From: a virus
Lineage: Duplodnaviria > Caudoviricetes
DNA length: 63,440 nt
Direction: 5' to 3' (one strand)
IMG/VR virus record: IMGVR_UViG_3300025133_007312
Location: 1-63,440 of that record
The notes below the pieces were generated by a model, which was not told where the DNA came from, searched no databases, and worked only from the letters and a program-made list of their open reading frames with translations. The position numbers and the translations under genes were made by a program. Positions 60,914 to 63,440 of the stretch are shown here, one piece after another (within the stretch, counting starts at the first letter, position 1; each line of letters opens with the position of its first letter).

Positions 60914-62158
60914 TTAAAATTGTTCTTCTTCAGTAGAATTTTTTAATGCAAGTGTGGAAGACTCTCCGTCAGAAATAACTTGAGAAATTTTGTCAAAATA
61001 TCCAGTTCCCACTTCACGTTGATGCTTGACTGCTGTAAATCCGTGAATCACTTCATCAAATTCATTTTGCTGTAATTCGGAATAAGCAGACATGCCTCGC
61101 TCAGAGTATTCCTTAGCGAGAGTAAACATGCTATGGTTAAGGGCATGAAAACCAGCAAGAGTCACAAACTGAAACTTGTATCCCATTGACTCCAACTCCT
61201 TTTGAAATTTAGCAATTGTTTCCTTATCTAAATGTTTTTCCCAATTAAATGAGGGAGAGCAATTATATGCTAATAATTTATTGGGATACTTTTCATGAAT
61301 GGCATCTGCAAATTTTTGTGCTTCCTCTAGCGATGGAGTAGAAGTTTCTAACCAGAGAAGATCGGCGAAAGGCGCGTAAGATAGACCTCTCGAAATGCCC
61401 ATCTCAATTCCGCCTGTAATTTTATAAAAACCCTCTGGGGTCCTTTCGCCTGTAATAAATGGGTGATCCCTCTCGTCTATATCGGAAGTTATGAGTTTTG
61501 CTGAATTAGCATCTGTTCTGGCAATTATGATAGTGGGTGTGTCGCATACGTCGGCAGCAAGTCTTGCCGCAGTCAATGTTTTAATAAATTGTTTGGTGGG
61601 AACAAGGACTTTGCCGCCCATGTGCCCACACTTCTTTTCTGCCGCCAATTGGTCTTCAAAATGAACACCCGCAGCACCCGCTTCGATCATAGACTTCATG
61701 AGTTCATATGCGTTCAGCGGACCACCAAATCCAGCTTCAGCATCGGCAATAATCGGTGCGAAATAATCATGTTCAGGTTGACCTACAATACCGCCCTCAA
61801 CACACTCAAGTTGATCTGCTCGCTGGAATGCTTTATTTATTTTTCTTACAACAGCAGGGACGCTATTGACGGGATATAAACTTTGATCGGGGTACATATC
61901 CCCTGCTAGATTTGCGTCTGCTGCGACTTGCCATCCACTTAAATAAATCGCTTTGAGTCCCGCCTTTACTTGTTGAACTGCTTGATTGCCAGTTAAGGCA
62001 CCTAGGCACCGAACGGCATCTTCCTCATGTAACATTTCCCATAATTTCTTTGCCCCATCAGTTGCAAGCGTATATTCAATCTTTTTACTTCCACGAAGAT
62101 TCAATACTTCTTCTTTAATATATGTTCGTTCAATTCCATCCCATCTATATGGTGACAT
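60914..62158 (-). CDS. aceA: isocitrate lyase
   Basis: [28 protein letters not shown]; catalytic [30 protein letters not shown]. Confidence 0.97.
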
Positions 62159-62175
62159 ATTTCTTACTCCTTCCT

Positions 62176-63440
62176 TTATTCAATTATTTCGTAACACTCT
62201 AGTGTTAAAAAATCTTTTAAATTATCTGACATGCACATATCTTTTATCAAGTTAAATATAGTTTCAAAATTTTTATTTTTTTCATATTTTCTGGATTCTT
62301 CTCTCAACACTTGATTAAAATATGTTTTATTCATAACAACGCGATTACTTAAAACAATCTCATGTTTTATCCACTGCCAAATTTGGGCACGACTTATTTC
62401 TGCCGTTGCTGCATCTTCCATTAAATAATTAATTGGTACGCACCCATTTCCCTTAATCCACGAACTGATATAGAGAAATATGATATTAATATTTTCACGC
62501 AACATTTGCTCGGTGCAATCACCAATCGGGGGAATAATCAAATCACTTATAGTAATATCTCGGTTTAATGATGACTTGGTGCCTATTTGGTTAAGGGCGG
62601 GCATGTGTTCATCAAAAATGGATTTAGCAATATGTACCAAAAAAGGATGAGCGACCCATGTTCCATCATGTCCAGATTGTACCTCCCTGAGTTTACCTGC
62701 TTTTACTTTTCTCATCGCAATATCATTTGCTTCGGGGTCGTTTCCAATAGGTATCTGTGCTGCCATGCCCCCTATCGCATGAACCCCGCGCCGATGGCAA
62801 GTCTTTATAAGTAATTGAGAGTAGGATTTCATAAAATGAGAACCCATATCCACCGTGGAACGATCCGGTAACACATAATTTTTATCATGTTGGAAGGTTT
62901 TTATAAAACTAAAGATATAATCCCATCGACCACAATTTAGACCGGCAGAATGCTCTCGCAACTCGTATAAAATTTCATCCATTTGAAGAACCGCAGGAAA
63001 TGTTTCAATTAAAACAGTCGCCTTTATAGTTCCGGGGGGAATTTCTACATATTTTTCTGCAAAATTAAAAATTTCCGCCCACAACCTTGCTTCCCTGGAG
63101 TGTTCTAGTTTAGGGAGATAAAAATAAGGTCTTGTTCCATTTTTCAAAAGTTCTTTATAGTTATGAAAGAAGTATAGACCAAAATCAAAAAGACATGCGC
63201 GAATACGATCACCACCAACCAGATAATTCTTTTCTTCTAGATGAAGACCTCTTGGTCGGACAAATAGAACGGCAGTATCACTTTCCAATGTATACTTTTT
63301 CTTTTGGTTTGTACATGTTATGGTTTTTCTTACCGCGTCATAAAGATTAATTTGTCCATTAATGCAATTATCCCACGTAGGGGAATTAGAATCTTCAAAA
63401 TCGCACATATAAACATTTGCACCTGAATTAAGGGCGTTTA
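62176..63440 (-). CDS. aceB: malate synthase A (5' end outside the window)
   Basis: Frame open to the edge ([17 protein letters not shown]); [42 protein letters not shown]. Confidence 0.96.

Follow-up and report, generated by a model that had tools for sequence, protein, structure and literature searches.

The genes for malate synthase (aceB) and isocitrate lyase (aceA) at one end of the IMG/VR virus record IMGVR_UViG_3300025133_007312, a linear record whose entire 63,440 nucleotides are here called the window, are encoded by the virus, as viral genes lie on both sides of the pair in the collinear phage contigs G001 and G002, the window itself ending at aceB. The CheckV completeness of the record is 35%, corresponding to a genome of ~180 kb (about 181 kb), and the window very probably represents about one-third of a tailed marine phage of that size, in which aceB-aceA (aceBA) is a vertically inherited auxiliary metabolic operon and not host DNA. 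A phage aceBA operon was already described in 2017, hence no new kind of system is reported here; what is newly settled is that the aceBA of the window belongs to the phage, and that isocitrate lyase also occurs, without its partner, in two or more other groups of phages.

Identity and organisation of the aceB and aceA genes

The aceA gene encodes a full-length protein of 414 amino acids that scored 749.9 bits against the NCBIfam profile NF011645 (cut-off 562; profile positions 21-428 of 430), 589.5 bits against TIGR01346 (cut-off 275.9) and 362.7 bits against Pfam PF00463. As its full-length match exceeds the curated equivalog cut-off, AceA is assigned by its profile scores as isocitrate lyase (EC 4.1.3.1). 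The top solved structure was 7cmx (637 bits), to which residues 5-414 were aligned with KKCGH conserved and with a gap-free match of the signature motifs, including HFEDQ; KKCGH, DAEAGFGG and HFEDQ were likewise kept in the alignment to solved isocitrate lyases. The KKCGH loop presumably holds the catalytic cysteine and the acidic motifs the metal site. An earlier annotation made from the sequence alone (the first-pass annotation) had claimed an intact isocitrate lyase with this motif, and these matches bear it out.

The AceB of the window is cut by the contig end, leaving 420 amino acids visible. It scored 596.4 bits against the malate synthase A profile TIGR01344 (cut-off 594.5; profile positions 82-510 of 511), and since the match begins at profile position 82, some 81 N-terminal residues would lie beyond base 63440. 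On this evidence AceB is assigned as malate synthase A (EC 2.3.3.9), its score being above the equivalog cut-off although 81 profile positions are missing. The Pfam domains MS_TIM-barrel and MS_C were identified, and the N-terminal domain PF20656, which in the window would fall beyond the contig end, was precomputed for four of the 120 best AceB clusters. Motifs including DFEDS, RPRG, IET and GRWDY, which we take to be among the catalytic and Mg-site motifs, were invariant in all seven aligned phage and metagenomic sequences. Orthologues in relatives are full-length at 498-502 amino acids, and the full-length AceB of G001 matched the solved chain 3cux at 570 bits. The pair had been called intact at first pass; this stands for aceA, which is whole with its motifs kept, and in the window it does not stand for aceB, which is full-length only in the relatives.

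Both genes are on the minus strand, as are 35 of the 40 listed open reading frames (ORFs) of at least 150 amino acids in the window, so that the operon does share its strand with the phage genes as first annotated; the short gap and strong Shine-Dalgarno sequence noted at that stage are also present (Table 1). From their sequences the two genes look catalytically intact and appear to form one unit. No aceK was found, the Pfam profile PF06315 having matched none of four phage records while matching the E. coli control.

The operon lies within a phage genome

Phage genes in the window include those for baseplate wedge proteins, a gp55-like late sigma factor, PhoH and exonucleases, with T4-type matches for the baseplate wedge (phrog_219 and phrog_10646) and the late sigma factor (phrog_234, E 7.5e-5). 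Collinearity with the window extended along its full length in three independent viral contigs, G001 (103 kb), G002 (111 kb) and G003 (26 kb). In G001 and G002 aceBA is internal, with phage-like genes on both sides. Beyond aceB these two contigs carry ~11 kb of tightly packed same-strand ORFs of 60-130 amino acids, after which follow genes for a MoxR-type AAA ATPase, a DUF2201/VWA protein (phrog_1297, phrog_1314) and an SLT transglycosylase, together with others that are likewise not housekeeping genes, and this far side of aceB is homologous and collinear between the two. G002 additionally encodes a portal protein (phrog_213, E 6.5e-77), a large terminase (phrog_2, E 4.7e-51), a primase and an SbcC-like nuclease. 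The sequence past the contig end, which the first-pass annotation had singled out for inspection, is hence phage-like in the collinear relatives and not bacterial housekeeping DNA.

The first-pass annotation had also cautioned that a host boundary might lie at the tRNA genes, in which case the last ~4 kb of the window would be bacterial chromosome beside a tRNA-integrated prophage, or the product of an assembly mis-join between phage and bacterial sequence. The position of aceBA at the contig edge adjoining two tRNA genes is in keeping with this, as are the guanine-cytosine (GC) content of 0.40-0.47 at 59.4-62 kb, compared with ~0.35 elsewhere, and the typically bacterial nature of DUF2490 proteins and aceBA. 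However, the block comprising aceB, aceA, a small ORF, the DUF2490 gene and the genes that follow is internal in both G001 and G002, and its order is preserved at a median protein identity of only ~50%. The GC content at third codon positions (GC3) of aceA (0.313) and aceB (0.290) matches the phage gene mean of 0.295 (standard deviation 0.040); as GC3 falls inside the phage distribution, the higher overall GC content of aceA is attributed to its amino-acid content and not to recent import.

Public Logan contigs from sequencing runs were also compared with positions 58000-63440 (depth being unreadable in these, and the uncovered parts in run X2 uninformative). In run X4, from a different metagenome, a single independent contig of 4711 nucleotides covers 58000-61711, passing across the tRNAs into aceA, and contigs of runs X3 and X4 extend ~1.2 and ~4.3 kb, respectively, past position 63440. 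The tRNAs beside aceBA vary between relatives: the window has Thr and Leu and G001 only Thr, G002 and G003 have none, and L018, an 81-kb contig from a more distant phage, has an Ile tRNA upstream of aceB. As the tRNA set differs in this way, the tRNAs are probably phage cargo and not an attachment site, and no such site is indicated there; an integrase was found in none of the four fragmentary records. The host-boundary and chimera readings, which we consider extremely improbable, are rejected, and the caution raised at first pass is removed by the phage-like flanks in the collinear relatives and the bridging contig.

Conservation of AceA and AceB across relatives

Shared proteins were ranked by identity to the window, using a non-overlapping gene set and matches covering at least 70% of the query. 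AceA ranked first of 29 shared proteins in G001 (87%; median 54%), second of 31 in G002 (83%; median 52%) and first of 15 in G003 (82%; median 48%), with AceB ranking eighth (64%), ninth (67%) and fourth (66%), respectively. The operon is conserved and compositionally adapted across diverged relatives; at 64-87% protein identity, saturation of synonymous sites would be expected. In L018, aceB-aceA lies between different neighbours, and its AceA and AceB are 68-70% and 58% identical, respectively.

Distribution and phylogeny of phage isocitrate lyases

Seventeen loci were recovered when viral contigs were scanned with AceA, the collinear G001, G002 and G003 being among their records; aceB lay beside aceA in four, aceA was on its own in 12, and one locus was cut. 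Including the window, aceB-aceA pairing was present in five phage records (the window, G001, G002, G003 and L018). The aceA-only group (L006-L017) occurs on viral contigs of up to 162 kb and encodes an isocitrate lyase of 424 amino acids without a malate synthase; in L014, for instance, aceA (9944-11218) is surrounded by virion structural, nuclease and tail-spike genes. Amongst deposited phage genomes, only Phage C48C1 harboured an AceA in genuine phage context, the other matches being bacterial or short unannotated fragments, and no AceB match with genuine phage context was identified in these genomes.

In a collection of 5.8 billion proteins, the best 120 AceA clusters were 83-100% identical to the window protein and all metagenomic, on contigs of up to 179,661 bases. 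The best 120 AceB clusters, retrieved with the full-length AceB of G001, ranged from 59 to 99% identity, with 119 on contigs of up to 182,658 bases and one on a contig of 267,447 bases. Named cellular AceA sequences, from plasmid or chromid records of Bacillota, Alpha-, Beta- and Gammaproteobacteria, Actinomycetota and Bacteroidota, were 62.5-68.5% identical to that of the window.

The phylogeny of AceA was inferred with a midpoint-rooted maximum-likelihood tree of 42 sequences, comprising 18 from phage records, 15 of the 120 metagenomic clusters chosen for their spread of identity and contig size, and nine named cellular sequences chosen for taxonomic spread; the partial AceA of L005 was omitted. 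The AceA proteins of the aceBA phages formed a clade with support of 100/100 (97/88 when L018 was included), with members on contigs of 174-180 kb. The 12 aceA-only loci formed a separate clade (100/100), sister to a betaproteobacterial sequence (96/89), and the AceA of C48C1 was isolated on a long branch. Within its thin cellular sampling, the tree suggests three or more lineages of phage isocitrate lyase. A phylogeny had been proposed at first pass as a means of revealing both a virus-specific clade and the host lineage; the aceBA-phage copies do form a clade of their own, and no donor is named from the nine cellular sequences.

Comparison with known systems

The first-pass annotation held that the intact pair is rarely described in phages, a view overtaken by the literature. 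The study of Nishimura et al. (2017, mSphere, PMC5332604) reports an aceBA operon in the complete 179-kb marine viral genome TARA_ERS478052_N000008, along with three T4-like structural homologues, six lipopolysaccharide (LPS) or capsule enzymes and no identifiable host; it presents the operon as the first in a complete viral genome and proposes a host-benefit role in a putative lysogenic phase. Judged by that published description, this genome resembles the window lineage in size, habitat, aceB-then-aceA order and glycan genes. The window phage is at best related to TARA_ERS478052_N000008 and is not the same phage, though it looks like a member of the same lineage. The aceAB genes had already been found in Pacific viromes by Hurwitz et al. 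(2013, PMC4053976). Among huge phages, a 2025 preprint (bioRxiv 10.1101/2025.02.27.640493) gives 98 isocitrate lyase genes and 22 malate synthase genes, the two being adjacent in 20 genomes, and lists marine habitats among those with huge-phage malate synthase. The predominance of aceA over aceB in that account is likewise seen in our 17 viral loci, although the huge-phage collection is confined to genomes of at least 200 kb and the window lineage is ~180 kb.

The phage operon is similar to E. coli aceBAK in that aceB precedes aceA and only a short spacer separates them, and in encoding the same two enzyme families. The AceA of the window is ~64% identical to that of E. coli and ~65% to that of Salmonella, and its AceB ~52% to that of Salmonella. 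It differs from aceBAK in that none of the four phage records has an aceK match, in that aceA is followed by a promoter-like site, a small ORF and tRNAs, and in showing no sign of IclR-type regulation nearby. The N-terminus of the phage AceA is also ~13-20 residues shorter in the alignment to solved isocitrate lyases. The complete deposited genome of Phage C48C1 (OQ984149.1, Kyanoviridae, 156 kb, circular) similarly has an isocitrate lyase among phage genes and near tRNAs, but its AceA is only 57% identical and annotated as a hypothetical protein, aceB is absent, and no other gene common to the window lineage is found within 17 kb around its aceA.

Proposed role during infection

During infection, the phage isocitrate lyase would be added to the tricarboxylic acid (TCA) cycle of the host, converting isocitrate to succinate and glyoxylate, and the phage malate synthase A would condense glyoxylate with acetyl-CoA to give malate. 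The additional isocitrate lyase would compete with the host isocitrate dehydrogenase and draw isocitrate off the two CO2-releasing steps. Acetyl units would thereby be retained in C4 acids, available for gluconeogenesis and for making amino acids and nucleotides, and the NADH load would be lower. As aceK was not found (none of four records), the shift in flux would come from enzyme dosage and not from switching off isocitrate dehydrogenase. The aceA and aceB genes each have their own ribosome-binding site. In the relatives, aceBA ends a long same-strand array of small ORFs, and no terminator-like site precedes aceB; we infer that aceBA is transcribed with the small-ORF block, probably early. 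The rerouting of carbon into nucleotide and sugar precursors, with a link to the glycan pathways, is plausible; such a link was suggested at first pass and, in a different form, by Nishimura et al. (2017). The literature searched, subscription journals being outside its scope, contained no experiments on isocitrate lyase or malate synthase of phage origin. A phage with both shunt enzymes could set the fate of acetyl units in infected marine bacteria, between oxidation to CO2 and retention as precursors of biomass, and aceBA phages thereby bear on the flux of ocean carbon through virus-infected cells.

Nishimura et al. (2017) instead favoured lysogenic or pseudolysogenic conversion, whereby a resident provirus expresses aceBA and surface glycan genes for the growth or survival of the host and not for a lytic burst. 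Their argument for the 179-kb virus rests on its LPS genes and a zeta-toxin homologue (PMC5332604); the window, too, encodes many glycosyltransferases and sugar-nucleotide enzymes, and a strong sigma-70-like promoter candidate and a terminator frame the unit neighbouring aceBA. Yet no integrase was found in four related records, all of them fragments, and the long same-strand arrays of small ORFs, the late sigma factor and the phage's own tRNAs and transfer-messenger RNA (tmRNA) are the architecture of a large phage of lytic type, hence we regard conversion as improbable.

A non-canonical role was also considered, in which the enzymes would supply or remove glyoxylate for glycine or glycolate metabolism, or, in cells under iron or oxidative stress, lower NADH and the demand on respiration, and not save carbon. 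The 12 aceA-only loci and the solitary aceA of C48C1 imply that isocitrate lyase by itself is useful to phages, and a DAO-family FAD oxidoreductase is encoded in the window (Table 1). Nevertheless, the tight pairing of aceB with aceA in five phage records is the textbook arrangement of the two-step shunt, and both proteins score above equivalog cut-offs, making such a role most unlikely.

Several points weigh against our preferred reading of an inherited, carbon-conserving aceBA operon in a ~180-kb tailed phage. The aceB gene is truncated by the contig end in the window itself. The Pfam Gp23 capsid profile matched none of the four fragments, and the controls likewise gave no match, hence the result is uninformative; the tyrosine integrase family was matched in none of the four records, all of which are fragments (13-61% complete) whose missing parts could possibly hold an integrase. 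The virus-specific AceA clade is provisional, as it is set against only nine cellular sequences, all from plasmids or chromids. Cellular AceA proteins retain 62-68% identity to that of the window even across phyla, so the high identity of AceA partly reflects general constraint on the enzyme. Promoter-like sites were not in excess of those in shuffled sequence (13 against 16.3, and 50 against 39.1, in two scans). Function is unproven, and we infer enzyme activity, expression, the direction of flux and any tie to the phage glycan genes; among 24 sequencing runs no RNA run containing this stretch was listed, which bears on expression in neither direction.

A bolder extension of the preferred reading, to which we would give slightly less than an even chance, is that a marine phage lineage of ~180 kb, distributed globally, has long carried aceBA as a core module, that the module is probably transcribed together with the early block of small genes, with its AceA constrained more tightly than the structural or regulatory proteins of the phage, and that large aquatic phages acquired isocitrate lyase on three or more separate occasions (in the aceBA clade, in the aceA-only clade near betaproteobacterial sequences, and in C48C1). 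If true, the carbon-conserving rewiring of this TCA branch point would be a convergent phage strategy and no one-off curiosity.

Genes and sites downstream of aceA

Proceeding 3' from aceA, a promoter-like site, a 71-amino-acid ORF, tRNA-Leu, tRNA-Thr, the DUF2490 gene, a terminator-like hairpin and an HNH endonuclease gene were encountered in that order (Table 1). The CCA-less tRNAs and tiny ORFs recorded here at first pass are present, with ORFs of 41, 71 and 77 amino acids between aceA and the tRNAs; only the 71-amino-acid ORF has homologues in relatives, and it had no Pfam match.

Table 1. Coordinates of aceBA, its neighbourhood and other features of the window
Feature	Position	Strand	Description
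aceB	62176..63438+	minus	Malate synthase A (predicted); runs to contig end
aceB-aceA spacer	62159..62175	minus	17 nt; AAGGAG Shine-Dalgarno ending 8 nt before aceA ATG
aceA	60914-62158	minus	Isocitrate lyase (predicted)
Sigma-70-like promoter candidate	60742..60770	minus	TTGACA, 17 nt, TATGAT, with TG; 11 of 12 consensus matches; starts next unit
Cysteine-rich small ORF	60502..60717	minus	71 amino acids; hydrophobic N-terminus; homologues 47-53% identical at equivalent place in G001, G002 and G003
tRNA-Leu(UAA)	60236-60318	minus	ARAGORN; Rfam RF00005, 58.1 bits; CCA not encoded
tRNA-Thr(UGU)	60145-60218	minus	ARAGORN; Rfam, 71.4 bits; CCA not encoded; same tRNA at same place in G001
DUF2490-family protein	59500..60111	minus	PF10677, 40.9 bits; N-terminal signal-like segment; 50-66% identity to G001, G002 and G003
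Intrinsic-terminator-like hairpin and T-run	59453..59474	minus	Ends unit; comparable site after DUF2490 gene in L002 (12602-12625)
Glycan-gene region	54303-58871		
APS kinase-DUF2061 fusion	53517-54266	minus	PF01583, 176 bits
tmRNA	44975-45226	minus	One-piece; Rfam RF00023, 105 bits; tag ANDNVALTLAA
Glycan-gene region	30682-40000		
DAO-family FAD oxidoreductase	31492-32574		Inside glycan-gene region
Giant ORF	18544-26844	minus	2766 amino acids
Giant ORF	5278-14778	minus	3166 amino acids

The DUF2490 gene has the highest GC content of the window genes (0.451, z = 2.9) and is kept after aceA in G001, G002, G003 and L005, framed by the conserved promoter-like site and terminator. Its product may be an outer-membrane protein delivered by the phage, and a hint that the host has an outer membrane comes from its signal-like N-terminus. 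At the equivalent place in the relative L002, a promoter-like site at 11243-11271 matched 12 of 12 consensus positions, by consensus match only. Terminator-like sites were not above shuffled sequence (6 against 3.0, and 10 against 9.6, in two scans), and of all promoter and terminator matches only the two position-conserved sites are reported, as consensus matches. In the upstream small-ORF block of G001 (L019, 2300-5200), plus-strand sites of the form TTGACA, 17-18 nt, GAnAAT recur, often with an upstream TG; these may represent a phage early-promoter family, though their total count is not above that in shuffled sequence.

Other features of the phage genome

Two giant ORFs flank the baseplate-wedge genes; they keep their position in G001 and G002 but are only 26-43% identical to their counterparts there; those of their neighbouring ORFs that were scanned had no PHROG match. 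The giant ORFs probably encode tail-fibre or host-recognition proteins.

Glycan genes are dense in two regions of the window (Table 1), which include two nucleotide-sugar epimerase-like genes, a methyltransferase, a GtrB-like gene and several glycosyltransferases of GT2, GT25 and GT4 type, two of these being multi-domain proteins of 562-664 amino acids. An APS kinase domain is fused to a DUF2061 membrane segment; this fusion is 73% identical in G002, where it is found with two neighbouring small ORFs (76-87%) at a different genome position, and it suggests a sulphated glycan or the supply of 3'-phosphoadenosine 5'-phosphosulphate. A tmRNA is found in G001 at the place matching that of the window (L022, 11613-11854) and carries the tag ANDNVAISLAA, and G002 and G003 have a tRNA-Gly(UCC) there.

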